64,000 nucleotides of DNA from Amoebophrya sp. A120 (GCA_905178155.1 CAJINV010000001.1:5181994-5245993); one strand, 5' to 3'. Numbered from the stretch's first letter, positions 1 to 29,162 are shown. Numbers and translations are program-made. Notes: a model not told the origin generated them from the sequence alone.

Positions 1-437
1 CAATACTCCTTTCTTTCTAGGAAATTTTGAAGTTGTAGATGCTCGCTGAACTAAAAGAACCGGAGCAAAGTAGCTTCGAACAAGTGCAAGCTCAGTCGAG
101 TCATCTTTATTCATAACTAAGATTTGCGCTACGGTTTTCCTTTTCTATTTCTACGTAGTGTGGTCCTTCTACAACTGGAAGTAGATGTCTGTGCAAAGCG
201 AAGCGAGAAAATGAAAATCGCAACGAAGCAACTGCAGGTGTAGAGCTTGGACTTCTTCTTACTAAAGGCGCCTGTTGTCAAGTCTCCAATCCACACGCTT
301 TGGCTGTGATGCGTCATGTCTAGAATCAGTGTGGACAAGGAGGCCGACGACAAAAAAAAGCTCAGTCGAAAAACAAAAAGATAGCTCATAGTAGATCTAG
401 ATGTAGAAGCGGGGACTTTTCATACGATTCCCGTCTC

Positions 438-540
438 GGCGAACATACTTCATTCTACGTGCGGCTACGAAGCGAAAATCAAACCGAGGCGAACATACTT
501 CAGTACTACACGATAGAGGAAGCGAAAATCAAACTGAGGC
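438..540. repeat. Two-copy ~50-bp tandem repeat
   Basis: GGCGAACATACTTCA...GAAGCGAAAATCAAAC(C/T)GA starts at 438 and at 488. Confidence 0.75.
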
Positions 541-1739
541 AAAGAATACGGTATAAAAATAAATAATAGTGATGCTGCATACGAATTTTGATTCCAATAA
601 GTGAAAAGCGAAGTTGAAAAAGTAGATTCCGTTTCTAGAGAAGCAAAAATTGCACGACGGGTGAAACTATCAAAGGAAAACTGTGAAAATTTGGTAGCTT
701 GCAAATCGACTTCTAGCTCTGCCCACAGGCTAATCTTACATAAGAGAAGCTTTGATTGTTATTTTGTTTTTTTCATCTTCTTGTTCTTGGAAGCTAGATA
801 GCGAAAGCGAAACACAAATAAGAACAACGCTACTAGTAGTGCTAGCGTAACATTGACAAAATTACTACATCAAGTCTCTTTCCCGTTCTACAACAGATGC
901 TTCACGACAGAGGAGTTCTCATGCGGAGGCATCTTGTGCTTCACGACAGAGGAGGTCTCATTCGAAGCTGCGCGGTGGATGCAAAACCTGATTTTTTTTT
1001 TGGAGACATGCATAAGCACGAAATAGTGATAATGAAGATATCTTGGTCATGTGGAAAACGAAAATAGGATGCTTCAGCGTTTCACTTTTTTTCTCATGAT
1101 CAACTTCTGTATCTGTGGTGATGGAGTTGGTGTTTGCACCTGTGCCAAAAAAACAGTTCCAAAATTGCATGCCTACTACCTGGAGGAGCACCAAAAACAA
1201 AAATGCCTTTCTTCCTTTCCCCTTTTCTTCTCTGGGGGTCTTTTTTTTCTTCACTTTACTTTTTTCTTCTTCTTTACTTCTCTTTACACTTTCTTTCTTC
1301 TCTCCACTTCTAGCATCGCGTTTTCTGTTTCTTACTATTGCCGAGCGCCTTGACTCCTGTTTCCAGCGGGACTTGAAAGGATATCTTCACCATCGGGGCG
1401 TTCTTCTCCGCGGAAGATGGCATCTCCTCCGTAATGGTCCGCCAAAAAATAATTTTGGAGCGGTCACATTTGGAAGCATCACTGCACTTCCAAAAATATT
1501 TGATGTGACTGTAGTGTGATTTGGTTTTCAGTTTCAATTTCGTTTGCAAAAGATGAAGATCGAGCGAACATTGGAACTGCATCTACCTATCATGCAAGAA
1601 TCCGAAAACAAAAAGCGAAATCGAAATGCAAATAGTAACGGCACTTCTACTAGTACTTGGACACGTGCTCAAATTTGAACTTGGATTTGCAGTGCGAGTG
1701 CTAGTGCTAGTAGACGTTGACGTAGCATGAAGATGAACA

Positions 1740-2177
1740 TCAAAAAATAAATAACAGTAAATACCTGAGTCCCAAACTATGGGCCTGCGGACCACCCTTC
1801 GGGAACTGCCAGTTTCCTTGGAACCGCTTCTCGCTGGGGTTGAAGAAGAGCTTGTCGATGGAGAAGTCGACGCCGTCGCCGATTTTACCGATGTCGTACA
1901 TCGTGTTGTCCGGTTTCACTAATATCCGCAACTTGTGTAATAACTCATGATGCTTATCTAATTCCGGGTCGGTCAAGTGCGAAAACTCGGACGGGACACA
2001 CATGCACCAGCGCATCGCTTTCGGCTGTTTTCCGGAGAGGTATTCCAAAGAGCACTTCTTGGGGTCCTTTTCCAACCGCTGGCGATTGGCATCGCGGTTC
2101 AACTTCTCCTCCGCGGTCTCGTCCGGCAGACCCAGCTGGTTCTCGATCACCGGGGACGGCGGAGCATTGGGATCCTT
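1740..2177 (-). CDS. Hypothetical protein, probable internal exon of an orphan gene
   Basis: GC-rich, stop-free block (KDPNAPPSPVIENQLG...FQGNWQFPKGG). It follows a CAG acceptor near 2178 and ends at a GT donor near 1764. No recognisable domain. Confidence 0.4.
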   Translation of the reverse strand, partial: KDPNAPPSPVIENQLGLPDETAEEKLNRDANRQRLEKDPKKCSLEYLSGKQPKAMRWCMCVPSEFSHLTDPELDKHHELLHKLRILVKPDNTMYDIGKIGDGVDFSIDKLFFNPSEKRFQGNWQFPKGGPQAHSLGLRYLLLFIF

Positions 2178-2363
2178 CTGTGAGATTTTGTTTGTATTTT
2201 ATGTTTGGGATGTTGGTGTTGCAGCTGAGGATGCGCCACTGAAAATCAAAATCGCTGACAGTTTCTGTTAGATGAGTGTGGTGACTTCAGTGGCAATCTT
2301 TTGTTCCTGGTTTGGTATTAAAAGTCTGTGCCTGCAGCAACAAAAACGCAAGAACTTCATTTG

Positions 2364-3127: not shown

Positions 3128-3141
3128 GCTATTTAGATTTA

Positions 3142-4122
3142 CTATACCTTCTTCAACGCAGCTACCGCAGCTGCAGCTTTTGCCTCGGGCGGGGGGGAGG
3201 CAGCTTTTCCTTTTCCCGAAGCGGCCGCGGCTTTCGCGTTCGCGGGCTGGGCTTTGTCTTTCTTCGCTTTTCCGGCTGCGGGCGCTTTTCCGCTCTTCGC
3301 GGCTGCGGCGGCTTTTCCTTTCCAGTTCAAGGAGACGTCCACACTTTCGTCGATCTCGAAGCAGTCCACCTTTCCAGCGGGGTCGGCAGTGGTGGGGACG
3401 AGGGGGAGCAGCAGCGTCCCGTCCGTCACGCACTCCGTCAGCCGCTCGATGTGGTCGCTCGGGCAGGCGTCCTTCAACTTGTGGATGAACAAAGACTCCT
3501 TCTGGCTTCCGATCACGTACATGTGCCGCTCCAGGAGCGTGGCTTTCGGGATGTTCTTGTCGAACGGAACCACATGGCACTGGACGGACGAGCCCAGGTT
3601 CCCCGCACAGAACTTGTACTTGGTCTTGATCAGCTGGGCCACGTTGGTGAGCAGGAAGTCTTCGTCGGCCTTCTGCTGTTGGGTGCGCTTGAACTCCTTG
3701 GACAAAACCCAGTTCCCCTGGTAGTTCAAACCCCAGTACTGGGGGTTCGCTTTCTTTTCCAGATCACTGGCTTCTTTCAAGTCCGACTCTTCGGACAAAC
3801 CTGTCTCTTTCTTGCTGGAATAGAAGTCCTTCACCTTTTTCATCGCCTTGAAGAGGGACACGACGTTGGACTTGATGTTCCGCTCCTTGATGGGCAAGAT
3901 CAACTGCATCTCCTCGCTGGTCCTGCACTTCTTGGCCTCGTTGCTGCGGTCCGGAATTTTGGCCGGGGCCAGGTTGGTCTTGATCAACATGGTCAAAGTG
4001 TCCTCCTCGACGGTCCTATGAATCTTCACAAAAGCATCACGACTATACTCTGCTACAGTAGCACTAGCAGTGCCAGTAGCTGAGCCGCGATCTTGTGCAG
4101 CATGAGAATAGCAATCTGTCAC
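3142..4122 (-). CDS. Hypothetical protein with Lys/Ala/Pro-rich (histone H1-like) C-terminal tail; probably the last exon of a longer gene
   Basis: 326-aa ORF with GC3-rich codons, ending KGKAAAAAKSGKAPAAGKAKKDKAQPANAKAAAASGKGK...LKKV*. Confidence 0.65.
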   Translation of the reverse strand: MTDCYSHAAQDRGSATGTASATVAEYSRDAFVKIHRTVEEDTLTMLIKTNLAPAKIPDRSNEAKKCRTSEEMQLILPIKERNIKSNVVSLFKAMKKVKDFYSSKKETGLSEESDLKEASDLEKKANPQYWGLNYQGNWVLSKEFKRTQQQKADEDFLLTNVAQLIKTKYKFCAGNLGSSVQCHVVPFDKNIPKATLLERHMYVIGSQKESLFIHKLKDACPSDHIERLTECVTDGTLLLPLVPTTADPAGKVDCFEIDESVDVSLNWKGKAAAAAKSGKAPAAGKAKKDKAQPANAKAAAASGKGKAASPPPEAKAAAAVAALKKV

Positions 4123-4276
4123 GCAGTTTCAGGGCAAGATACACAAACTACTTGCAATGCAATTTGTAATGCGGAAATCCGCTCACTATGAGAAAGGACG
4201 TGATGCTTTTGCAAAGGATACTCAGACCACGGGACGACGTCGGCCTGGCAGCCGGCCGCGAACTGCAGGATGACTC

Positions 4277-6051
4277 TCACGGCGTAGTGCATGTCAAGCT
4301 GGACACTTCCACTCTCGATGATGGTGTCGGTGTACGGGTTGATCGAGGACAGGGCGTTCTGTTTTGATTTTTAAAATTTAAATTAAAGTTTGCAACTTTA
4401 CTTTGAAGCTTAAGCTCAAAGCTTGCGCTTGTTTTTGTATGCAAAAGTGAATGTGATCTACATGTAGGTGTAGCTACAAGAGAAAGAGAAACCTGAAGCC
4501 TGTCATGAGCATGCGCATGCACTTGCACATTAAAACTCTCATAATGATGCTCGAACGGAAGTGGAAAAAAAATCAGTACGTTGCTGTAAGCGAAGAATTT
4601 TAAGTGTCCATCGTTGTGCTTCGGGCGGGGGACCATCTGGCTGACGCTCAACCCAAAATGGGTGTATTCTTGGACCACGCCTCTATTAAACATGGTCACG
4701 GCATGCTTCCCATAACTCTTCAGCTGCCCGCGCCATTTGGGGCCCGCAAGTCGTTCGATCCACACATCGAACTCGTCCGGGGTTCTGCCCGCGCGGGCCT
4801 GCGTGTCGCGGTACTGGTTGTACTTGGGCCAGGACTGTATTTGTTTTAGATTTTCATTTTGTAGTTTGTGTAAAAGTAAAACTTCAATTTGTGATGCAAA
4901 ACGGTCACAATGCAAAAAGAAACACTACATCTATCATCTAAGATGTAAGATGAAGATGAGGATCATCTGGCTGAAAATTAAATCTAACAACAACAACTGC
5001 GAACCTTTCCGGCGAGCACGGTGGTTTCGATCCACCCGTTGCACATCCCTTCGGGGGTGTTATTCTTGAGCATGACGTACTTGGTCAAAAGCTCGGGATG
5101 GCGGTCCACGTCTGGACTTAGTAGCACCAGATCCACATTAAAGGGCTCCGGATCGCATCCCTCCAGCAGGAACGCTAAGCAGGTATGCCCGCCGTGCACG
5201 AACGCGAACTGGAAGTCGAAGCGACCAGTTCCCGTATAGTCGACTGCCACGAGTCCTGGAAGTTTATAATTTTTATTTTGCAATTGAGATTGAAACTGAA
5301 AGTGAAAATAAAAATGTAAATGGAAGAAATTTTTATTTTTTGCATATGACAATGACTACGACACGCAGTAGTTCGAACGTGCGCGTGGGCGTGCTTTTTG
5401 TATATGACACGCAGCTCATCGAACGTGCATTTTTTTGCTATGCAGTACCTCGAACGTGCTCTGTGTACGACTAACGATGTGGACGCGCATGAAATCAGAA
5501 AGCTGTAAAATGCTTGCACGAGGAGACTTTTTCTGACTTGTAACATTGTGCACGAAGACGCTTTGCCCTCCTCGCAAGGAGAAATGCGCGACAACATGCG
5601 ACATTTTCTGTGTAGTTATGCACAAAGTTTCTCACTACATATGAATGCGTGATGAACCCGAAACAAGCAAAACACTATGGAACTGCGCACGGTCTAATGG
5701 ATTATACATGAAGACTATAGGCATGAAAAACACAAAAATAATAGTACTCATCTTAGACCCGTCCAGGCCGTCGGCGCGGCCGCGCTCGCGCACGGCGTGG
5801 CGCAAAGACGCTAAGTTGTCCCCCACGATGGGACGGCTGCACTCGTGGCGGCCACTGTTGGTCACGTGGTGCTGTTTCAACTTCACCACGGTGCGGCTCA
5901 TGTTGTTCGGGTCGTAACCGTTTTTGCAGAAGCGGAGCAGAATATGATCTGCCTCTGGCACGCCTGCCTCGCCACAGTCTACGAGACTGCAAAACGTCCC
6001 CACTTCATCGTCCGAAGGACGATTAGTGTGACGTAACGTCGAAAGACTCAT
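4277..6051 (-). CDS. Multi-exon hypothetical gene (GC-rich exons ~4590-4835, ~5000-5260, ~5755-6050); may splice into the 3142-4122 ORF
   Basis: Three GC-rich coding-like blocks separated by AT-rich intron-like gaps. No recognisable domain. Confidence 0.35.
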
Positions 6052-7873
6052 CTTTTTTCAATATATTTTTCAAATATTCTCTCACAATTCCTATTGGTTT
6101 TGAGGTGAAAACGCGGTCAAAATGATGAAGATGCAACACATTATCAGAAGACTTTGAGCCGTCAGATGATGATGTTGAAAATGGTCATTTTCAATTTAAT
6201 TGGATTTCTACTGCTTTTTTCCACTAGAATAGGAGATCTGGTCAAATATGGTAGAAGACGTCCTTTGCTGTCATAGTGCTCCACGGCAGTAGAATTTCAA
6301 TTAAATTAAAAATGGCCATTTTGGCCATCACCGCTGACGACCATTTCATCACCTTGAATCTGACAAGAGATAGCTCTGTATCTGGCATTTTGGTGCTGAG
6401 AGCCACGTGATCATCGACCCCAACGAAGACAATTATTTTTCTTCCGACTGCTTCTGACGAGTAAAAATCGACGAACACAACAAGACGCATTACTCGGCTT
6501 CGCGCTGGTTTTACAGTGGAGCGCAGGCACTACTCATTTGATTTTCTACTTTCCTTACCTCATTCCGGATTAGAAACGCCAATCTTCTAACAATCGGAAT
6601 GCACAGCGTCTTTTGATTTATGTTTCAATTTGTTATGCGCAAAATCTATTGCACAGGAATACATGTATTAACAATGCAAGAAAAAGCGGCTGCTTTTCTG
6701 TTGTCCATGCAAGAGCTTTGCTCTTCAGCGTCACGCTTCACAGCGTCTTCATTAGCTGCGTGTAGTTTTTCAAATTGTCTGCTAAGTGGTGGGCTGTGCA
6801 CTAATTTCGGTGTCGGTTTTGCTTAATCCACTGCGCGTGGACTTCGATAATTCTGTCGCCATGCTCTTGAATATGATCGCACTTCGGTCGAAAGCGCTGA
6901 GATTCAAGATGCAAATCTGCATGATCTGCATGATCACATGGCTGTTTATGATATGAAAAGAGGTGCGCGCACATGTGAAAGGAACACTTTCACCACGCAA
7001 AAATATGCGTAATTCTAGTTACTAACTTCCTCGATCATGTAGTTGATACAGATAATAAACGAAACGAAACAGAGCAAGATCAATGATCAGAGTCGGTTTT
7101 TTTCTTCGTCTTCCAGTAACAAAAAGTCAAAACACAAAAGTGAAATAAGCCATGAGCACGAAGATAAAATCATAAACCTATTATCACGCTTTTTATTTTT
7201 CTTCATGATCATGACGTAGGCGCTCCTGCTGGCGCACTCATATTTATTTTTTTTACATTTTCAATTTCTATTGCGAATTGGAGTTACAATTAGATTTAGA
7301 GTTACCATTTCCATTACGATTACAAATACAAAGTCAAAAAGAAAGAGTAAGAGAGATAGATATAGAAGTAGAACTGGAAGCGCAACTGTTATTCTTTTTC
7401 ATTTTCTTATTCTTTTTCTTATTGATATTTATAAACCAGAACCAAAGACCAAAACGAATAGCTGGAGCAATACCAATAGACATAGCGGCTGAGTTTTACA
7501 TTTACTTTCATGCTAATCTGCATCGTGCACTTACTCTGATTCTGATACGATTATGAAACACAAATAGCGCAGAGCATCGCGGCAAAGAAGTGCGCCTCTT
7601 TCTGTAGTGGAAGTGGCGCCCTTGCCTGTAGCTGTGCCTGCACCTGTATTCAGTTACCATTACAATTACAAATACAATTTCAATTTCTATAACTAAAGCT
7701 AAAAGGTAAAGCCAAAGGAACAGGAAGTGGAAAACTATAACTAAAACAAAAACAAAAACTATTACTATTCTTATTATATTCATACTCACTTTCAATGCTA
7801 GTAGTTGTAGTGCTACTTTATCTGTGTCTTTAAGTCCTGATCTTTAGCTTTATGCGCTACATCCCCCGCACCA

Positions 7874-9226
7874 TTAGTCCGAGTCATCACTTGAAGATCC
7901 GAAGTTGGAAGAATCATCGGTCTCTTCGTATGTGCTTTCCATGTCGCTGTCTAGCTCGATGTCCTCGCCCTTCTGTTTCTTCTCCAGAACTTTGTTCTCC
8001 TTCTGGTATTGCGCCAGCGAGGCGCTCGCAGCTACTTCCTGTTCCGGTGTGGCACGCTCCACCTCACAGTTCTTCCCGTTTTCAAACTCTACCATCTTCC
8101 TGACGAATTCTTGCCGCGTTTTGGCGACGAAGTACTTCTTTCGGGCGGCACACGGTTTTTTGTTTTTCTGTTGCTGATCTTCCCCTTCATCTCCATTTTG
8201 CTGTTGTGCGCCTGCATTTCCGGAACCAGAAGGCTGCTGCTCGTCGCCCGGCTGCGCGGCATTGCGCGTGTCCGCACCCGCGCGTTGCTTGCCCACACGC
8301 TCGCGCGCGCCCGTATCTGCGTGCGCGCCCGTGTCTGCGCGCGCGGCCGCACCTGCGTGCGCGCCCGTACCTGCGTGTGCGCCCGTACCTGCGTGTGCGC
8401 CCGTACCTGCGTGTGCGCCCGTACCTGCGTGTGCGCCCGCAGGCGCGCTCGCCTGCGCCTGCCCGCCCGCGCCTGTACCCGCGGGTGCACGCCCGCGCCC
8501 GTCACCCGCGTGTGCATGTGTGTGCACGCGCACGTGCCCGCCTGCGCCTGCATGCGCACGCGCGCCTGCATGCGCGCCCGAGCCTGATGGTTGTGGTGGT
8601 TGGATCCCGACTGCGGCAGGTACTGCTCCTGCTGGTTGTGCGCCGTTAGGCCGGACCTCGTTTCTGCGGTCGAAGGGAACTGCTTTTTCAAGATTCCCCC
8701 GCCACTGTTTTTGTTCTATCTGCCAGATGCCGTAAACCCGGTCGCCGAGCCCATTGGCCGCGACTTCAGGCATCCTAATAGATTGCGGCACCTTCCCCCA
8801 CTTCTCGTCGCGGGATCGCCGGGTCGGTGAGTCGATGCGCGCGTTCCGCAGCAGCCGCTTCTCCTTCCTCAACTCCCTGTTCTCCTCTTCCGCGTTCTTC
8901 GACAAACAGATGTCGGTCCACGGCATGACAGTGTACTTGCCGACGATGCGATCATGATCCGGGAAGGTTTTGGCCGGCTTATAGCCAAGCCGCAGATTTT
9001 CAGTGTCGGGGACGCCGAGATCGTTCACCCGGTGCTGATAGTAGAACTCGGATTCATATTCGGTTGACGGTGCCATGTGCCAGAGCCTCTGCCTCTTCGA
9101 CGTGTCCATGTGGTAGAACTTCAGGTGCGTGGAACCGTTCTGGACGACGGGTCGAAGCTGCGGTTCTTTTTTTTCCCCCGCCTTCTTCGCATACTTTGCC
9201 GGCTGGTCCTCGTAGCGCGCGGACAT
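7874..9226 (-). CDS. Hypothetical protein (450 aa) with an internal Ala/Gly/His repeat region
   Basis: Uninterrupted ATG-to-stop ORF containing about four copies of an 18-bp repeat (GAHAGT) at ~8361-8438, and an acidic C-terminus. Confidence 0.7.
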   Translation of the reverse strand: MSARYEDQPAKYAKKAGEKKEPQLRPVVQNGSTHLKFYHMDTSKRQRLWHMAPSTEYESEFYYQHRVNDLGVPDTENLRLGYKPAKTFPDHDRIVGKYTVMPWTDICLSKNAEEENRELRKEKRLLRNARIDSPTRRSRDEKWGKVPQSIRMPEVAANGLGDRVYGIWQIEQKQWRGNLEKAVPFDRRNEVRPNGAQPAGAVPAAVGIQPPQPSGSGAHAGARAHAGAGGHVRVHTHAHAGDGRGRAPAGTGAGGQAQASAPAGAHAGTGAHAGTGAHAGTGAHAGTGAHAGAAARADTGAHADTGARERVGKQRAGADTRNAAQPGDEQQPSGSGNAGAQQQNGDEGEDQQQKNKKPCAARKKYFVAKTRQEFVRKMVEFENGKNCEVERATPEQEVAASASLAQYQKENKVLEKKQKGEDIELDSDMESTYEETDDSSNFGSSSDDSD

Positions 9227-9546
9227 TGCATCGGAAAACCAGCAGCACTATGCACGGAAAACCAAAAGTACGTCGTGGAGATAATAAAGGGCCGTCTGTG
9301 CTGCGTGGCTATTGATCTTGTATGACAAGAACCTGCCGTGCTTTCTAGTCCATAATTGTTGTTGTTTGAGTTGAAAAGCGCAGCCTAGTTGTACTAGTGC
9401 TAGTCCTATTGTTCCGCGCATGACAGATGCAAACTACCACCATTACTAGCATTACAGATCTACATTGTCGCGACCCGCTTCACAGACTGCCTTTATTGTG
9501 CCGAGCAGCTTGGCTCTGGATGCCCATGCTGCATCACAAATTCACT

Positions 9547-9779
9547 GAGATTAGTCTTTCTCATGCAGAATGAGAGCCAGCACTGTGATGCCCATGTACA
9601 TGATGATGCTGATGCTCGTGCTGAAGCCAATCTCATGCAGAATGAGACTAGTCATTCTCATGCAGATTAGTTCACGTTGAAGCTCTTCTCATGTTGAAGT
9701 CACAAATTGAGATTAGTCCTTCTCATGCAGAATGAGAGCCAGCATGGTGATGCTCATGTACATGTTAATGCTGATGCTC
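9547..9779. repeat. Degenerate direct repeats built on the hairpin motif TCTCATGCAGAATGAGA
   Basis: A ~70-bp unit occurs at ~9547 and ~9708. The core motif (TCTCAT/ATGAGA stem) also occurs at ~9632 and partially at ~9656. Confidence 0.8.
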
Positions 9780-9789
9780 AAATGCAAAA

Positions 9790-11150
9790 CTAGTAGCAGG
9801 TGCAGGCTTGTGATCCGGCCCTGCATGACAGAGAAGATTTGCATGACAAATCCAGCACCTGCACTTCCACTCCACGACGTATTTTGGTTTTTTCCGAAAC
9901 GGATACCGTGACACCAAAATCGACCGACATCCGGAGCTGATGCCCCGGCGGCGCATTCCCGTCCGTGTCTTCCACCACCTCGGCCAGAAGAGCGCCCTGC
10001 TTGGTTTTCTTCAGCACGAAGTAGTACTGCATCTTCTTCACGGGCGTTCCATCGCGGTTCCACAAAGGCATTCCCAGAATGTCACTAACCCGAAAGTCGA
10101 AGACCTTCATGTTCAGGGCCTGACCACCGTAGTTTGTGCGCGCGGCCCCACCCCTCGCCTTATCACCCCCGACGAGAGGCGCCGCCTCGGGACAGTCAGG
10201 CCGGGCAAGTACATCAAACAGCTCCGCAACCACACGATGCGGATTCTCTTCCGGCCGGACCTCGTTTCGCAGCAAGAAGTCGCTTCGGTCCGAAGTCAGC
10301 GGGTCGCCGTAGATCCCCTTCTCCTCCAGCAGCTTCCGAATTCTCATATTTGCACTGATCGACAGGCAGTGGTCGTTGATGAAGAGGAACTGCTCGAAGT
10401 CCAAATCTTTTCCCGCCCCCCGTCTGCAGAAGGTGCGGGCGGATCCCAGCAAAATGCCGATGAGACCGCCGGCCTCCCGCTTTACCCAGGAAGTAGTGCT
10501 GTTCAAACTTTCGGCGATCTGACTGCTAGCGAGGAAGCCCCTGACGACGGGACACAGATTTCTGCAGAGCTGTTTGCTCCACCCGACATCGACACGACCT
10601 TGCTCGAGAGCTTCGAGAACATGCTTCAACTCCAACCGGAACAACTTCCAAACCTCCAGTGCCTCGAGTGGCATCTGCGACCGCTTCGCCTCGGTGGCGC
10701 ACGCCGCCAGCAAGTCTCGAATAGTTGCCGCACGCTCCGCTTTGTCCTTCGAGAAGAGAAACGCCAATCGGTAAGTTGAGCTGGGCGCGCCTGGATGGTC
10801 GCCGAAATCCGGATTTCTCTGGATTTCTTTTGAAGACCTAAACCAAGCCAAGTAGCTGACCAAGCGCAGCGCCGGGTGGCGCGCGCGTGGCCGGCCGTCT
10901 GATCGCGGGTGCGCTGCTACGAACAAGCAGTGCGCACCGCGATAGCGTGGCGTCGCGGTGTATCTGTGAAGCACCCAAGCTCCTTGTTTATTGCAAACAA
11001 GCCAAAGAAAGTGCAAAGATCAGAGCGAGGTCATGCAGTCCAACATGCACAAGATCACGTTCTTTCCGCCTCGAAGTAGTTACATCATGCATTTTGAGGC
11101 ATTGAGTTGGTTGTGACATCGATACAGTGCGTGGCATGTGCAGCGCATGC
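9790..11150 (-). CDS. Protein resembling the C-terminal half of a hAT-type DDE transposase
   Basis: Long GC-rich ORF. LCPVVRGFLASSQIAESLNSTTSWVKR (~10480-10560) fits the hAT C-terminal L..PaSSa.sERxFS pattern with the catalytic E. No D/D/CxxH motifs seen upstream. Confidence 0.45.
10961..11124. mobile_element. Degenerate introner (TATC...GATA), 164 bp
   Basis: Imperfect TIRs; 5-bp flanks CGGTG/CAGTG. Removing element + 5 nt gives HMPRT-ATPRYRG in frame. Confidence 0.55.
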
Positions 11151-12238
11151 ACAATCAGTGTTCGATACAAATTAGACGCATCGAATAAAATAAATTGTAG
11201 CACTTCGCAAGAGTTTTGTTTCCAAATAAGATCTTTTTTTTCCAATCCGCGTCCGCCAAACCGCGTCGTCCGGATCTACAGCAGCTCTTCCGCTCCACGC
11301 GCTGCTATCTCGGAGCAGCTTCTCTCCGCTCCTCCTACTCAAAACTGCACTCCTGCAGTTCCACCTTCTCCATTCCGCATCTACAGCTGAGCCGCAGTGT
11401 GCGGTCTCGACATGTAGCGCGTGAACGTGCTACATCGTGTTCGCAGCGAAGGCATCATTATTGTTTTGTTTTTGCATACAAATAGCACGCGCTCTGACAG
11501 TAGAAAGTTTTTTCGCATGATTATAACACAGACGGTGCGCAAATGATGCGTTTGCGAACTTTTCAACACTCCAACACTATAACCGCTGTCTTCTTTCTTT
11601 CAAACGGGAACACTCCTTCAATTTGAGGCCCTGTTTCATTATGACGCTGTTAGTTTATTCATGTTTTTACCCATAAAAATGTGAATCAACATTGGTTCAC
11701 TTTCGCAAACTGTCCTCTACTTTCGATGTTGTCGCTGCAAATGGTGCATTTGCGTGCACTCTATGTTCTTCTTCGCTCTTACTGATTGTTCTGTGCATTT
11801 TCTCCAAATTTTGCATTTGATCGAACCAATGATGAATACAGTTGTAACTACAGAGAAACCTATTCTCCCGATCTATATTCCCGTATATGGTTGTCAACTT
11901 TACTTTGTAGTGCAATCGTACAGTCTGATCAGGACAAAAGTTTGACAACAAATAAAACGCGATACTGTGGTACTCCTCCTTGCACACAATCACTTCATGA
12001 ACTTGATATTTTTTCACTATAGATAAAACAAAAACGCAAGGAGGACACGCACAGCACGCCAAATGCTATATGGTCGCGGCGGAGTGACAGTGCGAAAAAT
12101 TTACGATTTAATCTCTGTATCTTCGGCAGCGATTGTTGTTTTTTCGAGTGCAATAATTGAAGCTATACCGATCTTCTCGAGTATACGCTATAACTATTTC
12201 GAACGAAGATACACGATTTTTACTCTTCGATAAGCAAC

Positions 12239-19200: not shown

Positions 19201-19430
19201 CTGTAAAGTGAGCCACAATCTGTAATGCAAAAGCGCGCTTTCATCTGCGCCGGACATGCAGCCTAGTTGGCTACAGAAAGAAAAAACTCAACATCTTTTA
19301 GAGCTGTTGTCGTGTTAGTTTTTGCATGACAAACTCCTACTCATGCGGAAAGTATTTTCATCGCTCTACCGGGCGGAAGTTTGGTACGCCGTACCAATGC
19401 ACAGGCTGTACTGTCGCTGCAACTTTTGCA

Positions 19431-22400
19431 TTACAAAGTAGCTCTTTTTACATTGGATAAGTCGCCGTCCTCATGCAGCTGCAGCTCTTCTTCTTCCTCC
19501 ACGTCTTCATCAAGCCCACCCAGCCCGAGGTGCGCGATGTCCGCCAGATCCTTGGGAACAGCAGCCTGCTTTCGCAGGGCTTTCACTTTCTCCTTCTGCT
19601 TTCTTACCCACCGGGCTATTACGACGGCAGAAGCTGGCTGCGGGCGAGACCACACGGTGATTTTCCCCGGAGCCGAATGCTGCATCTCGCTGGTGGTGCG
19701 GTTCAAACGCGCCGGCAGGATCTTTCGCCAGTCCTGCTTATCATCGTTGTACCGCATGGCAACAGCAGCTTTTGTCTTCTCGTAGTAGTCCTTCTCCACT
19801 TCGACAACTGCTTTGTGCCGCGGCTCGTCATCATCCTCCGCCGGAGCCTCGTCTTCGTCAGACACCTCCTGGTCGATGAGAACGTTGTCTTTTCCCATCC
19901 TCCGGGCGAGGCACTCGTACTTCTTTCGCTCCGCGCTGTTTTCCCACTTGTTGTTGCGGTACGTGCGGCTCAGATGCGGGTACTGCGCATCCGGAACGGC
20001 CTCCGTGCATCCTGCTTTGTCCTTTTTCTTGAGGTCAATAGCGCGCGGAAACGCGTACTGCCGCTTTGCTTTTGGTTCTCCTTCCTGTGCTGTTTCCTCT
20101 GCGCCCTTTTCTTCTTCGAGGATGGTGCTCCACTCTTCCTCCACAGCCTGGTAGGCACAATTGAAATCGCGCCTGTTGCAGTGGCAGTCCGCGCCCGTGG
20201 TTGACTTCAAGCCGAACCTGCTCGCCTTCGCACCATTTTTCCACCGCCCTATTTTTCGTTCGATGTTTTTATTCGTGCGATTCCGCTTTTGCAGGTACAA
20301 GCAAATCCGCTTCAACCGGCTTTTTCTTTTTTTTTGGGGTTGGTGCAAGTACCACTTTTTCAACGACACTAGTGCCATGGTGCCCGGATCATTGACGACG
20401 TACCTCCGCATATGCATTGCAAAGTGCACATCTTCACATAAGTTGCGTCATGAGGTGCGTCTCGTTTTGCCATGTCATGCATGACAAATATGAAAAAAGA
20501 AGTCACAAGATGTGATGCAGAGTTGCAACTTATGTGAGTATGTGCATTTTTCAAGTGATAATCTTCGGCGTTTTCCAGCCTGGTAATTGCGCCTTCTTCG
20601 TCGTTTTGGTAATCAGTTAGCCACTGATCATGCGCCGACATGCATCCATCGCGGTACCGTCCAATCGAGTAGGAAGCCACGAGGCACAGCTGTGCCACAT
20701 GCCGGAAATGGTGTATCTGTTTAGTATTCCAAAAACAATTTTCAATGCGCATACTTTGCATGACAAATCAACTTATCACGCAGCCTAAAAAGATAGATGC
20801 TTTGTATTGCATGACAAAACAGAACCAGTACCAGTTCTAGCTGCTTCGGGGAAAACGCCACTTCGTCCGTCCCTATTCCGCACAGCATGAATCGCACATC
20901 CTTCTCGACCTGTTCCGGGTTATGAAGGTGCTGCAGTGTCGCCTTCACTGCTTTTATTAAATCCCCCATCCGTTCCGATCGGCCTCTGTCCCCGTTCCGA
21001 AGCAGGTCCGCATTGTATCCATCGATTGGTGCGCATATGAGCATGATGAAATAGGTGCAAAGCAGAAAGACGAACTGCAAACCTGAAAATTATTTATGTA
21101 TCATTTTCGTGGCTGCGAGCCATGTGATGCATCAGCTGTTGATCGTGCATGATAGATGTTCTTTTGCATTAGAATTGCGTTTCGTTTTTGAGTGCCAAAT
21201 TGCGGAACTGCTTACCTTCTTTGTGCGACATCGACACCTCGAATTCGTGGGTTAATACGTAATCAGCGCCGAATTTGATGGCTCGACCTAAGCCTACCAT
21301 CAACCGACCCAGGAACCACGCCGACGCCAAAACGTAAAGCCCGCAGGTTCCTATCACCGTCAACCATCTTGTCCAGATGGGCTTTTTCCAGCCTTTGTAG
21401 ATCCGGTGTACTGCTTGGAGAGTCTGCTTTTTCCCGTTTGCTTTTACCACCATTCGTTGCATCCTGATGCTCATTTCGCGGAGCTGCTTCTTCTTGCCGT
21501 CTGGCACTTGCACTCGATCTAGAAATCCACTCAGATCGGGATCGGGTTGCGCTTGTTCGTGCTCATGTCGGGAAACAATAAACGCCGGAATTTGTGTTGC
21601 GATCTGCTCGTGTATTTTCTCCTGGAGCAGAGACACCGACAAAGCCTGTAAATTGTATTAATTAAATTAATACAGTTCCCCATTTGTCATGCATTATTTC
21701 TGCATTACAAAAAAAAAAACGTAGTACCTGGCACCACAGTCTTTTCTGAAACGCCACCGGACACAAGCCGACGAGCGACAGGAAGAGGTCCGCGGTGGTG
21801 TGGGCCGTAATAGCAGCTTGGTGGCTCATGCACCGGTCGGGCCAAAACACCACCTTTCCTACCGCGGCCGAATTCAAGAACCAATATCCCAACCAGAACA
21901 ATGTATTTATTGTACTGCCGCCCGAGTCGCTGCACGGCGACCATATGCAGCAGGTCGTTTCTGGAATGGCCTTGAACATCTCCGTGGGATCCCTCAGAGA
22001 CCAAATTTGGTCTGCCACCTCGTAAGCTTCCGGGGTTATCGCTTGCAAATGATTGCAAGCTCAGCAATACAATTTTGATCAAGGTGCTACGCATCACAGT
22101 TTTGTCATGCTATGTCTACCTATTCCAAATCTGTCATGCAAAAACAAATTGTATTGCTTAGGATGCAATCACTTTCAAGTCATAAAATATCCCCTAAAAC
22201 ATGACTTCCGGTCGATTCGCTTCACGCCGTAGTTGGCCGAGTTCGGGTAAAGTATCGTGTGCGCCGGAATGAAGAGCGATCCGACGTCTTGTGTCCCCGC
22301 AACACAGAAGACGATGCAAGCGCACGTGAATATCAGGTGGCCGAAAATCCTGATTTTCCCTTCCGTCGCGTTCCGCCAGCTAAGCACTTGCGAAGTGCTG

Positions 22401-22700
22401 CCGTCCGTTTCGATTCGGGCGTGCGCGACGGTTATTTTTTGCTTCGCGGCGGCGCTCAAAGCAGCTTTTTTTGATTCTTCTCCCAGCAACCCAGCACATC
22501 TCCATAGTTTCCGCTGCTGCATCTTGTTTTTCGTTTCGAAGAAGGTTGCACATTCTTCCGGCTGGTACAGTTGCTGCGTCGACGCGGCACAGGTCGATTG
22601 GGTGCCGCTCAACATTTGAAGCGAAGACTGCGCGGCGTCAATTATACAAGTGTCTCGCTGCCCTTCACCGCCGAAGAAGATGCTTACTTTTGTACTTGCA
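19431..22700 (-). CDS. hAT-like DDE transposase B (multi-exon; 5' end uncertain)
   Basis: Ordered motifs IETDGST (~22400), PCSDSGGS (~21925), RCMSHQ = CxxH (~21830), KPIWTRWLTV (~21365). Exons joined by one GT-AG intron and TIR introns. No clear C-terminal E motif found. Confidence 0.6.
20411..20560. mobile_element. Degenerate introner, 150 bp
   Basis: 36-bp imperfect TIR ending ...TGCACAT..TCACATAAGTTGC. The direct repeat is lost, but element + 5 nt removal joins LENAE(D/E)-RYVVNDPG in frame. Confidence 0.75.
22037..22184. mobile_element. Degenerate introner, 148 bp
   Basis: 39-bp imperfect TIR (TATCGCTTGCAAATGATTGCAAGCTCAGCAATACAATTT vs TATGACTTGAAAGTGATTGCATCCTAAGCAATACAATTT). Removing 153 nt keeps the frame. 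Confidence 0.75.
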
Positions 22701-23438
22701 GGTGGAAGACGCGCGTCACGTCGTCATTTCGTTTTCCAACAATAAATTATACATGTACAATTATACAGGTCGTTCTTGTACGAAACAAAACTAAAAAGGG
22801 CAGGAATGCGCACAGTGTGAAAGTGGGGTCACTGCTTTTTGCATTTCGTATGTATGCAACACTCACGACCAAAACACAGAGGACTTCTCCGCAATAGAAA
22901 GCTAAAACATAAGAAAAAAACCCAGCAAATGCCCCTCGAAGAAAGTAACTCGATGTTCTTTCAGCTGAGATTCTGCACTCTATATTGATTGAACACAAAA
23001 AACAAACCGATGCGATGGTGCGTGCACCATCGCAAAAAAAAAAAGCTTTGCATTCATTTCGAACATGGTTTTTGTATCATCAAAACAAACAACTTGCATG
23101 CGTTTCAGGTAGTCTTCTTTGACATCTACGACGTCAATCATCATCTTCATCCACTTGCATAAACGTCGACACTGTGGCCGTCGCAGCTGCTCGTCCCCGT
23201 TCTCGCCGATGATAAAACTTCTCCCCGCATCGCAGCTTCGAGGTGTTCGCGTCCCATGGCTCCACCGTCGCCGCGTCGGTGGGGGAAAAGGAAAACAAAA
23301 CTCTTGCGAAATGCATAATCATATTTTATTTGATACACCCGTCGCTGCGTCCGCCGTCGTTAACTGCAAGTCGTGTCCGTCACTTCTCGACGTCGCGCTG
23401 CCGAAACTCAACACATACGCAGGTCAGGGGATGTAGTG

Positions 23439-25520
23439 TCAATCTGCAAGACGATGGAGCTCTTGCGGATTGAAATGAACACTGGAAAGGCGATAACGCA
23501 GTCCATCGAACACAAACAAAGAAAGACGATGGCCACGCGTATGCCTCTCACGACGATCGAAAACGACGAAACAGCCCAAAACGAAACCAAAAGGGATGAC
23601 AAAACCAAACAAAAAAAAATTTTTTTTAAACAAAAAAATCCAATAGAAATCCGGACGAAATCCTTCATCCAGCGCGCCGAGCTCAAGGTAAGGCCATGCA
23701 CGAAGGGGAGAATGTCGTAGGTCCATCTCCTGTATCATGGTCCAGAACATTATCGCGGCGACCGGCGCCAGCCCCTCTGTGGCGAGACCGCGGACCGTCA
23801 TGCCGCCGATGGTGACGAGGAAATCCGTAACCCGCTGAAACAAGTCGACCTTGTGACACCGCGGCAAACTGTCAACAAAATCCGGTATGCTGGCACCGTC
23901 CAATTCTTTGGAGCAACTGTGCATCACGACGCCCGCAACGCGGTCTATCTCAATCAGGACGAGACTCAACACGCGGAGCCCGCCCCACCACAGAGGCTTC
24001 CCGAAGGCAGCTTTGGCCCGGTTAAGAAACTTCCGGCTCTTCTTCTGCAGCTTGTCATCACTTTTATCCAGAACTTTTTGGACGATGCTCTCCTGCTGCC
24101 TCCACAGCCCCGTGATACACTTTCCCACCGAAAGCCAGCGCGTCCGAACGAAACCGGTGACACGCTTCACGACCGACTCCGAAGAGCGAAGCTTGGTCTC
24201 CAGCAGCCTCTTCTTCGCGAGCAATTTGGGGTCGCTCGCGATGCGCTCCTTGTGGAATTTCTCCTGCTCCACCGAGGTCATGTGGTGCAAGCGTCTCTTC
24301 GATTCTTCGTCGTCGACGGTGTACAGCTCGACCAGCAATTCATCAGTAGTTTTTTGCCCCCGGACTGTCCCTTTCCTGTCGTTCGCTACCCGTCGCGGGG
24401 CGATCCACAAATTGACCGTCTTGGAGACCGCAGTTAACGTTCGGCGAAAATCCAGCCGCAGCAACGATCGCTATGCTGAGCAAAAGCTAAAGTAAGTATC
24501 GCTCTCGCAGCAAAAGCAAATGCAAAACGAAACTCAAACTCAAAGTCAAAAGCAGTCGCAAGAAAAATAATGCATCACAAGTTCCGCTGCTGATGTTGAT
24601 GCTGATGCTGATCAGCATGACAAACTAACTTTTAGTTGGTACGCAGCATGAGAAATCTAATCTCGCCATCATTGCTGGCGAGTTTCAATTTTGATTTTCT
24701 CATGCGATTTCTACTAGTGCTACTACTACTAGTGCGACTGCGATACTTTACTTATACTTTTGCAAAGCATAATCCACACAAGGTGACCATTGTGCTCGCG
24801 ACAATGTGGGCCAGATGCAACTGGCACTGGAGCCAGCTCACATTCCAGTGCGGCTCCTCCAACCGTTGGTCCGGGTCGTAGAAGCGTTGCGCGGTGGCAT
24901 ACTCGACCCAGCACTTGACTGCTTTTTTCACGTCGGACGCGGAGTCGGATGTGCAGATGAGCGACGGCCGCATTTTCAGCAGCTTGTTACCGACGCGACA
25001 CACCTTCGACCACATGCCGGGTAGCGGGAATCCGATGCTCCACGCGGATTCGTACAAATCCTGTAAAAAAACTTCATGGCCGGAGCCGGTGGATATGGTG
25101 GGCAAAACGGTATCGTGGGAGTAAACGATCATGGGGTCGCACCAGTCGCTTTTGTAGAGTGTGGCCCAGCAATTGAGGGCCTTGATTTCATCGCACGGGG
25201 TCGCGTCCGGGGAGATTCGTATCCCCACCTTCGGCCGGTTTTCTGCCTGACCCAGATCCCCCTTCACCCCCGTTCCATAGAGGTAGCCGGACTGCAGCAG
25301 ACGATGCGAATTTTCATCACCAAATGATCCCAGGTCCGGGGCGGACGGTGGAAGGAAAGTTGTTTTGACCGAGCGACCCGAGCGGCTGGCTATTCTGTTC
25401 ATCGTTGCCGAAGCCAAAGTTCAAAAAGGCGTCGAAGCCATCCCCACTGTCTCCGCAAGCCGAACTCGCCGGCTGCGTGTCCACCTGGGCAGCAGGCTCC
25501 TCCTCCTCCTCTGGTGGTAT
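23439..25520 (-). pseudogene. hAT-like DDE transposase A, probably decaying
   Basis: Motifs ISPDATP (~25205), CTSDSASDVKKA (~24945), QCQLHLAH = CxxH (~24820), VRTRWLS (~24140). Two ORFs join via the introner at 24472-24771. In-frame TGA at 25421-25423; ragged 3' end. Confidence 0.65.
24472..24771. mobile_element. Degenerate introner inside transposase A, 300 bp
   Basis: TIR TATGCTGAGCAAAAGCTAAAGTAAGTATCGC vs TATGCTTTGCAAAAGTATAAGTAAAGTATCGC; flanks ATCGC/ATCCA. Removing 305 nt gives VTLCG-SLLRLDF. Confidence 0.8.
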
Positions 25521-25902
25521 TCGTATTACATGACTGCTTCAGCTTTTTTTTTCGTTTTCTTTTTCAATAGTTCCGCTTTCGACTACAAGCACAGGTCGAT
25601 TTATGTTTAGCATTACAAACACAACTACTACTGCAGTCAGAACTACTAGAAATAGAGTATGAATCTCGATCGAAACTAGTTCTACATTTGCAACTCGGCT
25701 TCACAATAGGACTACGAGTAGTGCCTCGAGTTTGAAACTGACAATGAACGCGAAGAAGATGAAGCTCGGCACCAAGATCCAGATGAAGTTGAAGAACAAG
25801 AACTGCTACTGGTAGTCGTAGTGGTACTGCGTGGCAAAGTAAAAGTATAAGTAAAGTAACACGGTATAATAGTAAATGTAAAAGTAAAACTAAAAATGAA
25901 AA

Positions 25903-27639
25903 TCAGGCACCACTCAAGGATGGGAGCAGGGTTTCCACCTTCTTCTTTACCGCCTTGCTGCTTTTGCCCGCCACCGGTTGAGACTGTTTTTTCTCCGCCT
26001 GCTTCAAGACGGATTTACTCGGCAACTGCTTCAACAAGGTAGACTTGGACGCGCGCACGCCACGTGCTGCTGAACTGCCGACGGCTGCGCTTCCCGAACT
26101 ACTACTGGAGCTGCTGCTCGACCCCGCGGTCGGTGGATCCGGGGGAAGATACTCCGCTTCGAAGTCGAAGTCGTCGAACGTATTCATATCACTATCCGCA
26201 GGCGAGATGGATGGCGCCGCTTGATTTCGCAGAAACTCGTGGTCAGTAGCACGAATGCTTTGCTCTCCCGATACCAAGTCACCGGACCCGAGAGAACTTG
26301 CTGGCAGCAGATGGCGCACAGCCGCCCCTAACTGTGCCAAGGCGCCAGAAGATGAGAAGCCGCCCACGTTCACGTTCTGGCTGCTGTTGATTTTGGAAGC
26401 GGTGCTGTTATTGTTCTTGTTCTTCGACGTACCAGGGGCAGCACCATTACACTTCGCATCACCGGCGGTGGAGATGCCGCTTGACAATAAGAACGAAACC
26501 AACCGGTTGCGGGCAGCAATCCGTCCGGCGTCGAAATACTTCAGCTCCGACCGAACTGCCTCCTTTCGCTCCTGGTCCGCTTCTTTGTTCCTGTCCTTCT
26601 CATCTTTCTGGGCGATAATTTTTGCTGCTTTCCTCGATATGCCGCCGGCTGCTACCTTCACATCATCACCGAACAGCTGGCTGCGATGATGATGGAACTG
26701 GTCGTCGTCCAGGTTGTAGTCGCCACCGTCGGGCAGCACCAAAGGAGCGTCATCTTCGGAAAGTCCCGCGTCGGTTATCTCAACCTCTTCGGCAATTTCC
26801 CGCATGACCCGCACCCGCCCGTTGCCCTGTTTCTTCACGATCGTTTCGTCGGCAAGAATATCGTCCTCCTCGTCCTCTGCCTCAGACTCGGAAACCTCAG
26901 CGTGGCGGTGGATGACGACTTTTTTCTTCCGGCGCGGGAGATTGAAGCAGGACTTGGAACTGCTCCGCTGCGCGTGATCAACGCGTAGCTCCGCCTGCCC
27001 TTGGGTAATCTTTTTGAACCGGGAGAAGAGGCCGGCACTGCTGGCGATTTTGAAGGTCTTGTTCCGCGCCTTTGCGGTTCCGCCTAAACTTTTCCCCAGT
27101 GCGAACCACTTGTACTCCTTCTTCCGGGTCGACTTTAGGTGCTCGAAGTTGTTGTCCTTCTTCTCGGGGTTGTTGAAGTACTTTTCTGGGTTCAGCGCCA
27201 AGTCCTGCGCAGCATCCAGCGAACCAGACGCACTACTACCTCCTGTCTCACTTTCCGCAGCTGGTGCTGCGTTCGGATTGGGTTTTGCGACGATCTTCCG
27301 CGTAGCAGCGTCGCCGCGGTCGATCGGCGCATTGAACCGGTCACACTGGTCTCGCACAAACTGTTCCCAAGCTGCCTCGCCTTCGACCACGCGGTCGGCC
27401 TTGAACGCGGAGAACCGCTTCCGCAAAGTATCCGACGTTGGCACGAGGGAAACGTTCTTGCTCTTCCTATTGCGTTTCAGAAACGCGCCGGAAGTAGTGT
27501 TGCTGTTCTTGTCATTCGGGTCGAAATAAGCTTCAAGAAGCCTCTGCAAGTTGGAGTATTGTTTGCCCGAAGCGCCAACTTGTTCACCAAAAAACCCGGC
27601 GTCTGCCCCGTCGCCCTTCTCGGCTGCACGTCGTGGCAT
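25903..27639 (-). CDS. Hypothetical basic, low-complexity protein (~578 aa from ATG MPRRAAEK)
   Basis: Long uninterrupted ORF with NLS-like stretches (PRRKKK, KRNRKSK) and acidic tracts; lies directly upstream of transposase A. Confidence 0.65.
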   Translation of the reverse strand: MPRRAAEKGDGADAGFFGEQVGASGKQYSNLQRLLEAYFDPNDKNSNTTSGAFLKRNRKSKNVSLVPTSDTLRKRFSAFKADRVVEGEAAWEQFVRDQCDRFNAPIDRGDAATRKIVAKPNPNAAPAAESETGGSSASGSLDAAQDLALNPEKYFNNPEKKDNNFEHLKSTRKKEYKWFALGKSLGGTAKARNKTFKIASSAGLFSRFKKITQGQAELRVDHAQRSSSKSCFNLPRRKKKVVIHRHAEVSESEAEDEEDDILADETIVKKQGNGRVRVMREIAEEVEITDAGLSEDDAPLVLPDGGDYNLDDDQFHHHRSQLFGDDVKVAAGGISRKAAKIIAQKDEKDRNKEADQERKEAVRSELKYFDAGRIAARNRLVSFLLSSGISTAGDAKCNGAAPGTSKNKNNNSTASKINSSQNVNVGGFSSSGALAQLGAAVRHLLPASSLGSGDLVSGEQSIRATDHEFLRNQAAPSISPADSDMNTFDDFDFEAEYLPPDPPTAGSSSSSSSSSGSAAVGSSAARGVRASKSTLLKQLPSKSVLKQAEKKQSQPVAGKSSKAVKKKVETLLPSLSGA

Positions 27640-29162
27640 CCTGGACCAACACGTGTGGAAAATTTGAACAAGAGCTGCTATTCCGCCGACAGTTGCAGCA
27701 ATGACGAAAGAGACCACGCAACCCCCCACCTAAGCGGGTGCCAGCTCATCACAACCTCGGAAGGACATCACGACCATTGATTGTTGCATTTGATGCTCTG
27801 GCAGTTCTATCCGAGAAAGAAAAGAAAAGCAGTAGTAGACGGAGGAAAACTAGGAAGGTGTTTTTACTTTTTGTTTTTCTTCGGCTCATCAAAAAGATCA
27901 AGATGTGTACTAATTTTACTGCTTGTCAAAGATGAGAGCTTCGCTTCTTAGTTTCCTTCTTTTCAGCGTGAGAATGCTTCTGAAATACTAATACAAATAT
28001 TGCAGTCTGATGCCCCTTGACATCTCTGATAAACTTCTGGCTACATATGAGAAAACCACGTCAGAGTCAAAATCTAAACCACTAACACAGGGCCCACGTC
28101 TCACGATGCCCAACAGCTGCGCAACGATAGCTTCCCCCCAACGACACGATGCTGAGATTTGTCGCTACTTGTACGCGCACGGCTACACGGATGCTTTCAC
28201 ACACACGTCGAAATCGACTCCGAGGACCACGACAGCTGAGCTTCAACTTAGTCTTTATTTGAAAGTCTGGCATTGCGGAACGACGACCCAGTAGATGAGC
28301 TTGCGACTTTGACGCACACATTTACGACGACGCCCCACGATCAAAACGATACGAACGAAATTGGTCACAATGCTGCTCGTTCCCCTCCAATCAACACACG
28401 AAAAGCAGCCGCTTCACAAAAATCATAAGAACTACGTCGAGATGTGGATCACACACGAGCTCGAGACTCGCGCTGTGGTTGTGGCTTTAAGATTTTTTCA
28501 TAGTGGTCTGCTTTTCAGCGTTCCGTAAGCGAACACCGGCAAAATAAAAAACATAAAGGCCCACGAAGCACGGCTCAGAGCTACTCACTACTTGCTGTAA
28601 TTTTTGTAATGCATGTGAAAGGGGGTCGAGCTGTGCACTTTCAAAAACATTCTGTCATTGTAGAAGCTCAGAATAGCTTCAAACTCTCGATATGTTTTTC
28701 TCGGCTGCTGGCAATGAAGATCTTGTTTTTTGCCATCCACGAAAATCAACTTTCGCCACCGCAATGTAGTACGTGAAGCGACATCATGTGCGAGACCACA
28801 CAAATGATCGCTTGCTTTAACACATGTAGCGCGATCTAGATCAACAAAACCACGTCGCCAGGATCATGCGCCTCAAGATCTTTCTGCGGCGAACACATCG
28901 AAAACGCGACGATCAAATAGCAGCTTCTTCTCTTGCTATCGAGACCGCAACTGACCGAACCAATGAGGAGACGGAAGGAAAAGAAACAGAAACGAAACGA
29001 AGACGAAGGGATGGAGCTGCCAAACGGAAACCGACCTTAAAAAATGCATAGTTAAATCTAGCTATTTTTATAGCTATAAAATCCGGAATTAATAAGGTTT
29101 TGTCCGTCCATAACCAATCATGAAGACAAGAGACAAGAGTATAATACGCTACTAGAGAAATA

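Follow-up and report, generated by a model that had tools for sequence, protein, structure and literature searches.

What is the gene-like but unrecognisable DNA that fills the left 29 kb of this stretch of the Amoebophrya sp. A120 genome (GCA_905178155.1, CAJINV010000001.1:5181994-5245993; 64,000 nucleotides, hereafter the window, counted from its first letter)? An earlier note, made from the sequence alone, had described it as an island of orphan genes with several hAT-like transposases, forming either one giant cargo-carrying element or a nest of elements. The island as such was borne out by library searches, since the Pfam cut-off was reached by none of 25 island open reading frames (ORFs) or exons versus 5 of 26 ORFs right of 30 kb (8 of these 26 had an expectation value, E, of 2e-5 or lower); a second Pfam scan, of 22 trimmed island exons, was blank, and an Rfam scan of 1-32000 gave 0 matches. 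Of the two structures envisaged, we recover the nest, and the single-element option is wrong. We consider it highly probable that an inner 12.9-kb element has inserted in the transposase gene of an outer element whose enzyme has a predicted hAT fold, the nest likely lying in one intron of a transcribed host gene. The features concerned are the following (TIR, terminal inverted repeat).

1..29112, minus strand: outer element of hAT type, running past the window start on its left side; 16.2 kb or more when the insert is not counted
7874..27639, minus strand: outer transposase gene, 1,826-amino-acid model
29054..29112: outer right TIR, about 59 bp, imperfect, TATGG..CCATA; the doubled DNA contig stops at 29112 (..GTCCATA)
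29113..29120, plus strand: presumed right copy of the 8-bp target-site duplication ACCAATCA, from the flank of the twin-terminus contig
10776..23686, minus strand: inner TIR element, 12,911 bp, delimited by a DNA joint, by other flanks at both ends and by TIR alignment
10770..10775, plus strand: left copy of the 6-bp target duplication GGTAAG, the right copy being 23687-23692
30371..31972, minus strand: host gene exons in an open frame; the GT donor at 30370 opens the intron with the nest

The comparative evidence was drawn from contigs of coded public runs (X1, X3, X4, X6 and X8) and from protein libraries; X1 consists of DNA contigs, and the RNA label on the X3, X4 and X6 contigs, called RNA-like below, is the tool's guess. 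The inner element is delimited by an X1 DNA contig that represents the empty site: 10769 is followed directly by 23687, 12,917 bases of the window are missing, and 6 letters at the joint can be assigned to either side. Its TIR reads TTGAGCT(G/C)GGCGCGC, with 13 of the first 14 bases matching between the two ends, which also have the subterminal sequence CCGGATTTCT in common. Among the loose ends of X1 contigs, the inner termini are found at other flanks as well, twice for the right end and once for the left, and the right 1.5 kb exists in a second version with 4 substitutions, while the remainder lies on one contig identical to the window. Both insertion junctions are inside contigs (10746-22247 and 22218-23716), each of which reaches 30 bases beyond its junction, just the minimum overlap. 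The earlier note had found no termini and had set the right boundary of the island at 29160; termini can be located at 29112, 23686 and 10776, and the boundary is moved to 29112.

Without the inner element, the empty site is a single 587-codon open frame. The outer transposase was modelled with the exons 27639-25911, 25510-24772, 24466-23687 and, past the inner insert, 10769-9907 and 9247-7874, with GT-AG or introner-type borders and with omission of 4 bases at 25342, which a second copy of the element lacks; the 608-amino-acid ORF at 27.7-25.9 kb and the 457-amino-acid ORF at 9.2-7.9 kb are both modelled as its exons. The window copy is thus broken twice, by the inner element and by the 4-nucleotide insertion at 25342. 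Two genes, at about 25.5-23.7 kb and 22.7-20.5 kb, do have the ordered D..D..CxxH..TRW motifs reported earlier; the E motif, at about 10.5 kb, is likewise present, but belongs to the 3' half of the first transposase and not to a third gene. Three separate transposase genes, as had been claimed, are ruled out by the 587-codon frame together with the alignment of the relative P0001 across the insertion point (582 columns, E=2e-53), so that two transposase-like genes are left; the roughly ten genes counted before become about 5-7 in total. The key residues of the model are D677, D764, C804-H807, R931-W932 and E1168, and both the D-to-CxxH and the CxxH-to-RW spacings are shorter in Hermes. An HDT motif, previously taken to contain the first catalytic D, is excluded by a four-way alignment in which the conserved residue is D677 (PDAT).

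A HMMER search over 1.84 billion representatives returned 3 relatives of the outer enzyme (E 1e-21 to 1e-14), and a profile search added a fourth (P0001-P0004). The only named ones are gene models of Amoebophrya sp. AT5.2, each alone in its cluster, and AT5 holds at least 3 divergent paralogues. In the four-way alignment, D, D and CxLH are invariant (4/4), with RW and E in 3/4. An AlphaFold2 model of the P0001 core was built from 6 rows (mean predicted local distance difference test score, pLDDT, 51; predicted template modelling score, pTM, 0.41) and displays three strands and a helix, then a strand whose end is the second D, a further helix and a strand before CxxH, and finally helices. The structure check proposed in the earlier note was run on this core and gave Hermes as the best match: it occupies Foldseek ranks 1-4 (best E=2.7e-3) and, in a structural search of 48,161 chains, is alone in reaching Z>=8 (Z 10.9, root-mean-square deviation 5.9, 256 aligned; next 7.3). 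The outer enzyme family is accordingly predicted to have the hAT (Hermes) fold, and its catalysis would be of the hAT type. Pfam and NCBIfam scans of P0001-P0004 gave no relevant match, sequence and profile searches of PDB no hAT match, word-indexed protein searches with two single exons nothing, and a metagenome scan with an outer exon no relatives; a single-sequence fold of 9793-11019 was uninformative (pLDDT 37). Typical hAT transposases carry an N-terminal BED finger and a C-terminal dimerisation domain, which divergence may hide in the outer family.

At the outer right end, a twin-terminus contig found in X1, X3 and X4 aligns to 29054-29092 and carries an inverted twin. In X3 and X4 its loose end at 29092 runs through a near-identical terminus and then into TGATTGGT, the reverse complement of the 8 bases after 29112, for which the chance is about 1 in 65,000. 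In the simplest reading, this contig would be the outer left junction, with ACCAATCA as the 8-bp duplication. An inverted left TIR was searched for and is absent from the window, in keeping with the earlier suggestion that the left end lies beyond it; the outer element is therefore longer than 16.2 kb without its insert. Bases 1-9399 probably form part of it, given the missing left end and the gene linkage. In X1, contig depth is 31-47 at 9400-10775 and 23687-29112 versus 21-26 over the inner unique part and the host exons, and the second outer copy so revealed differs by 19 substitutions and one 4-nucleotide indel in 6,767 bp (about 0.3%). Since the depths of host and inner-unique DNA are alike, it is deemed a second locus and not an allele. 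Of the coding differences between the copies, 12/12 are non-synonymous, as expected for copies drifting after insertion. The outer element thus combines the predicted fold, the motifs and the presumed 8-bp duplication of hAT; its genes are not single-copy, and the predicted fold is RNase H-like, the opposite in both respects of what the earlier note had named as refuting its proposal. As a separate observation, the twin terminus (29054-29092) has a depth of 32-42 in two RNA-like runs versus 6-7 for the spliced host contig there; the presumed left junction may mark a transcript reading out of the outer element, contig depth being unable to rank expression.

The host intron is outlined by contigs of X3 and X6, which splice four host exons and depart from the window sequence at 30370, and by a contig of X4, which gives the next 27 bases beyond this donor; by inspection, the frame continues. 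These 27 host-exon bases have 0 matches in the window, so that the next host exon lies outside it and the intron is longer than 30.3 kb. The outer element begins 1.26 kb downstream of the GT donor, and the nest is therefore likely inside one intron of a transcribed host gene, with splicing across more than 30 kb presumably taking place in the same cells; X3 and X4 share the contig of the presumed outer left junction despite being other samples. Introns in Amoebophrya have a median of 208-247 bp, the longest being 35-90 kb (PMC7789003, Table 1). Over 12001-32000 and 9400-29399, transposase and cargo exons do not appear on the X3, X4 and X6 contigs, apart from low-depth 22218-22323 and 23068-23686, and of the raw-read run X8 5 reads were placed, none on host exons; neither result is evidence on expression. 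One further feature lies in the same intron.

29209..30355: separate 1.15-kb piece, flanked by a 51-bp direct duplication (29158-29208 and 30356-30406)

The 51-bp duplication comprises the end of the host exon and the splice donor, and hence supplies a second potential donor at 29171. Two GC-rich hairpin repeats mark the left end of the piece, and further copies of its right end (30264-30361) occur elsewhere in the genome; a retroelement that made a long target duplication is one possibility. The hairpin at 29.2 kb was also considered as part of a Helitron, for which there was no support.

Several points weigh against this reconstruction. The fold was predicted with low confidence, for a homologue and from 6 rows, and no Foldseek match had E<=0.001; the E region is unreliable (pLDDT<50) and beyond the range aligned to Hermes, and no Pfam hAT domain or BED finger was detected in the window exons or in P0001-P0003. 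The inner protein had no homologue in a database search, a metagenome scan with an inner exon was blank, and its comparison with the outer family gave no significant similarity, 34 of 300 shuffles scoring as high (hidden Markov model, HMM, -0.9 bits; hhalign 0.2%). A scan for TIRs with duplications performed at chance (7 observed versus 0-5 in 20 shuffles), so that the evidence for the inner element is the DNA joint and not the scan. The purely non-synonymous differences between the outer copies bear no sign of selection since the split. X3, X4 and X6 are samples different from X1, X1 is possibly the source of the assembly itself, contig depth is not copy number, and the contig comparison covered only 12001-32000 and 9400-29399. 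The inner ends, the 6-bp duplication, the empty site, the split gene, the homology, the conserved D/D/CxxH and the second copy are all directly observed, whereas the outer left junction, the 8-bp duplication and the autonomy of the inner element are conjectural.

The history of the locus may be pictured in four steps. The outer element (more than 16.2 kb, with transposase and an accessory gene P) would have been cut and pasted into the intron, with duplication of 8 bp. Its window copy would then have gained the 4-nucleotide frameshift and the inner insertion, both lacking in the sister copy, and owing to these two changes it is presumably dead now. The inner element, with at least one cargo gene, likely moves by means of its own, separately diverged hAT-like enzyme. 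Finally, splicing likely strips the whole nest from the host mRNA.

The accessory gene and its neighbours in the outer element are listed here.

3142..6051, minus strand: accessory gene P, 5 exons, about 615 amino acids, with homology to the long AT5 transposase models in their C-terminal half
6170..6330: 161-bp palindrome between transposase and P, with 45-bp arms that are 84% complementary
1743..2198, minus strand: exon of orphan gene Q, GC content at third codon positions (GC3) 0.74, no family match in library scans

A profile made only of the C-terminal halves of P0002 and P0004 matches P collinearly (E=4.3e-25; best of 500 shuffles 7.4 bits), and also the last exon of the window transposase. 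By this match, the order transposase-then-P is kept between species, fused in two AT5 models and apparently split here; the earlier expectation of transposases accompanied by accessory ORFs is thereby upheld, the transposase family with its predicted hAT fold being followed by the accessory gene in another species too. P has a GxH motif conserved in 3 proteins, although Pfam, NCBIfam, PHROGs and PDB-profile searches with it were blank; the motif is reminiscent of ParB/Srx domains, a tentative label that no library confirmed. As a separate observation, arrays of GC/GT-rich alternating purine-pyrimidine lie at 2297-2800 and 8290-8590; one is within a piece bounded by inverted repeats, and the other codes for a GAHAGT repeat in the transposase tail.

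The inner element has genes of its own.

20551..22723, minus strand: inner hAT-like transposase gene, at least 562 amino acids, 5 exons, stop-free model with provisional start and 3' end
17514..20420, minus strand: three long basic/acidic exons, which may form the end of the inner transposase gene or belong to another gene
12239..15818, minus strand: inner cargo gene E, about 640 amino acids, 10 exons, stop-free model
17196..17277, plus strand: subterminal motif TGGA(T/C)TTCTATT, 3 copies at the inner midpoint (17231)

In the inner transposase model, 3 of the 4 introns have GT-AG borders, and the motifs SD, CxxH, TRW and ExxFS occur in order. A strict motif pattern of the outer family, composed with both proteins already in view, matches the inner protein and 0 of 20,000 shuffles, a loose one 267 of 20,000. 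The exons of 17514-20420 join one another in frame; a join to the upstream exon was sought and not found. Gene E has a host-like GC3 (about 0.76), one exon of ambiguous frame and no family match (Pfam, NCBIfam and other library scans), and would be an intact-looking cargo gene, of which the inner element may hold one or more. A tyrosine recombinase was also sought in the inner element, with no Pfam match and no convincing plus-strand ORF. The duplication of 6 bp departs from the 8 bp of hAT; together with the motifs, it makes the inner element a putative hAT6-like one. Both the transposase and the cargo of this element are read from motifs and open reading frames, and are to be taken as putative.

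Some observations concern the inner ends. A 43-bp inverted pair (86%; 11180-11221 and 23293-23334) lies about 400 and 350 bp inside them; one copy begins like an introner end, flanking direct repeats are absent, and the pair possibly represents older termini or recombination sites. The right end (23068-23686), which includes a short ORF ending in DEDDD, is found on RNA-like contigs with a base difference and another flank, and these contigs hence come from a different copy. The sequence AAATCCGGA is common to the ends of both elements (window positions 10805, 23647 and about 29080) and is possibly a host-factor site, the transposases of the two having no detectable relation.

The midpoint of the inner element deserves separate consideration. 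With at most 1 mismatch, TGGATTTCTATT occurs 6 times in the 64 kb: each inner end has one copy, the outer palindrome another (6201), and 17196-17277 the remaining three. The 11-mers shared by the inner terminal 80 bp and the interior are found only at the centre, and all three central copies are within 46 bp of the midpoint. The cluster is 5.5 bp off it, for which p is about 0.007 under uniform placement and somewhat higher when placement is restricted to non-coding DNA. The array is a candidate binding hub that might help far-apart ends to pair. The main alternative, which we regard as quite possible though not favoured, is that the inner element is non-autonomous or composite, with a captured 6.4-kb block extending an old element (17.2-23.7 kb, about 6.5 kb long), the central motifs being a decayed former left end and their centring coincidental. 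Such an origin would suit the orientation of these motifs, which is that of the present left end, their position just past the transposase-side genes, the second inner copy, which shares only the right 1.47 kb, and the lack of a homologue of the inner protein; it fits poorly with the closeness of the cluster to the midpoint, with the fact that no remnant of the TTGAGCT terminus was seen at the centre and with the use of both present ends at other insertion sites. This alternative bears on the history of the inner element and not on the nesting. Extending the hub to a rule, namely that Amoebophrya has a class of giant (12-20 kb) multi-gene hAT elements which pair their distant ends through an exactly central site, composed of the end motif, to which the transposase or a ParB-like partner protein binds, is a tentative and rather doubtful proposal. 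Phage Mu has a strong gyrase site at the exact centre of its long transposon, of which the central site would, if the proposal is true, be a eukaryotic analogue; unlike the Mu site, the inner array consists of the element's own end motif, and its functional role is that of a candidate. By the same token, the outer palindrome (6170-6330) would be central too; the outer left end would then fall about 3.7 kb outside the window, and the outer element, less its insert, would measure about 19.9 kb.

Three other explanations were considered. The outer element could be the autonomous master of the TAT..ATA introners, which we judge improbable. Introns in the window include this inverted-repeat type with 5-bp direct repeats, and the outer ends are likewise TAT..ATA; moreover, the published argument against transposase-driven introners is that no transposase was found in one strain (PMC7789003), while the outer enzyme evades domain searches. 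Yet its duplication is 8 bp versus the 5-bp repeats of fresh introners, whose TATC/TATG-type ends have another sequence, and no 11-mer of the outer end recurs in the island. As the earlier note had remarked, the introns of the island are more decayed than those to the right: fresh TAT..ATA introners (TIR>=15/20, direct repeat>=4/5) number 0 in the left 29.1 kb versus 7 in the right 33 kb. In addition, 31595-32243 and 42899-43834 represent an introner family of very high copy number, whose depth in X1 adds up to about 2x10^5; its TIRs are near-perfect, its repeats are 5 bp long, and it is absent from the island. The host genes at 36059-63172 have WSC, thrombospondin, B-box, DEAD-box helicase, WD40 and M35 metalloprotease domains in the Pfam scan. 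The shared orientation of the island genes is uninformative, since about 98% of Amoebophrya genes are in co-oriented blocks (PMC7789003).

It is also quite improbable that the host has domesticated the outer transposase and P as a gene pair or fusion, with a segmental duplication behind the doubled depth. It is true that all named homologues are Amoebophrya gene models in one-member clusters, that GC3 is host-like and the introns old, and that only about two copies are seen, but the limit of the doubled segment coincides exactly with an inverted terminus that has an 8-bp duplication, the location is inside the intron of another gene, the catalytic motifs are kept, and AT5 has at least 3 divergent paralogues. 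An assembly artefact, in which collapsed repeats were joined and the nesting and/or the giant intron are unreal, is highly improbable, for although no single contig spans the island and X1 contigs break at repeats, both inner junctions are within contigs, the two TIRs agree with each other, as do the copies of the duplication, and the empty form is found on a contig of its own.

Among known systems, Hermes (PDB 8edg, 6dww, 4d1q) resembles the outer element in the predicted RNase H core with helical insertion, in the order D, D, CxxH, RW, E, and in having TIRs and an 8-bp duplication; it differs in sequence (12-13% identity), the outer element having no Pfam hAT/BED match, a 1,826-amino-acid model and more than 16 kb with a second conserved gene. 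IS3EU elements have termini TAYGG..CCRTA, TIRs of more than 30 bp and 6-bp duplications (PMC12730594); the outer end at 29112 and the length of its TIR agree with this, whereas its duplication is 8 bp and its enzyme's best structural match is Hermes. According to the same source, hAT6 families have 6-bp duplications and fungal hAT7 families carry a second gene, TET/JBP (PMC12730594). A 6-bp duplication as in the inner element thus exists in hAT families, although no sequence link to hAT5, hAT6 or hAT7 was found, the cargo is not recognisable as TET/JBP and the inner enzyme is known from motifs. ToxhAT, a 14-kb fungal hAT with cargo nested in a Starship (PMC9594970), is likewise a large hAT with cargo inside another element; here, instead, a hAT-like element sits in the transposase gene of another hAT, within an intron, and the cargo consists of orphan genes. 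Amoebophrya introners, as described in PMC7789003, share with the outer element TAT..ATA ends and removal from mRNA within an intron; the elements of the nest are 50-100 times longer, protein-coding and flanked by 8- or 6-bp duplications versus a 3-5-nucleotide repeat, and the outer element sits in a GT-donor intron, whereas an introner is itself the intron. Our literature search, which did not extend to Repbase or to the supplements of PMC7789003 and PMC12130899, found no paper on Amoebophrya hAT elements and none on a giant cargo-carrying hAT in dinoflagellates; the available text of the giant-transposon review PMC6431247 has no match for the term hAT, and no pairing of a eukaryotic ParB with a hAT transposase was evident from titles and abstract starts among the matches listed.

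We conclude that the nest is genuine and well bounded, that it consists of two large TIR transposons and that it represents a variant of hAT. The published case against transposase-driven intron spread draws in part on the near absence of transposases, two putative ones in one strain and none in the other (PMC7789003). Since the outer family, recently duplicated, with a predicted hAT fold and present in more than one Amoebophrya lineage, was missed by Pfam, NCBIfam, PHROGs and PDB sequence searches, that argument needs to be redone in a structure-aware manner. In size, the elements belong with the larger hAT-type transposons; a partner gene is conserved, and the elements likely persist because a host intron of more than 30 kb removes them from mRNA. 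The centred array, in turn, suggests a concrete and testable mechanism by which the ends of long cut-and-paste elements could be paired, and central sites might be a general design of these giant elements.

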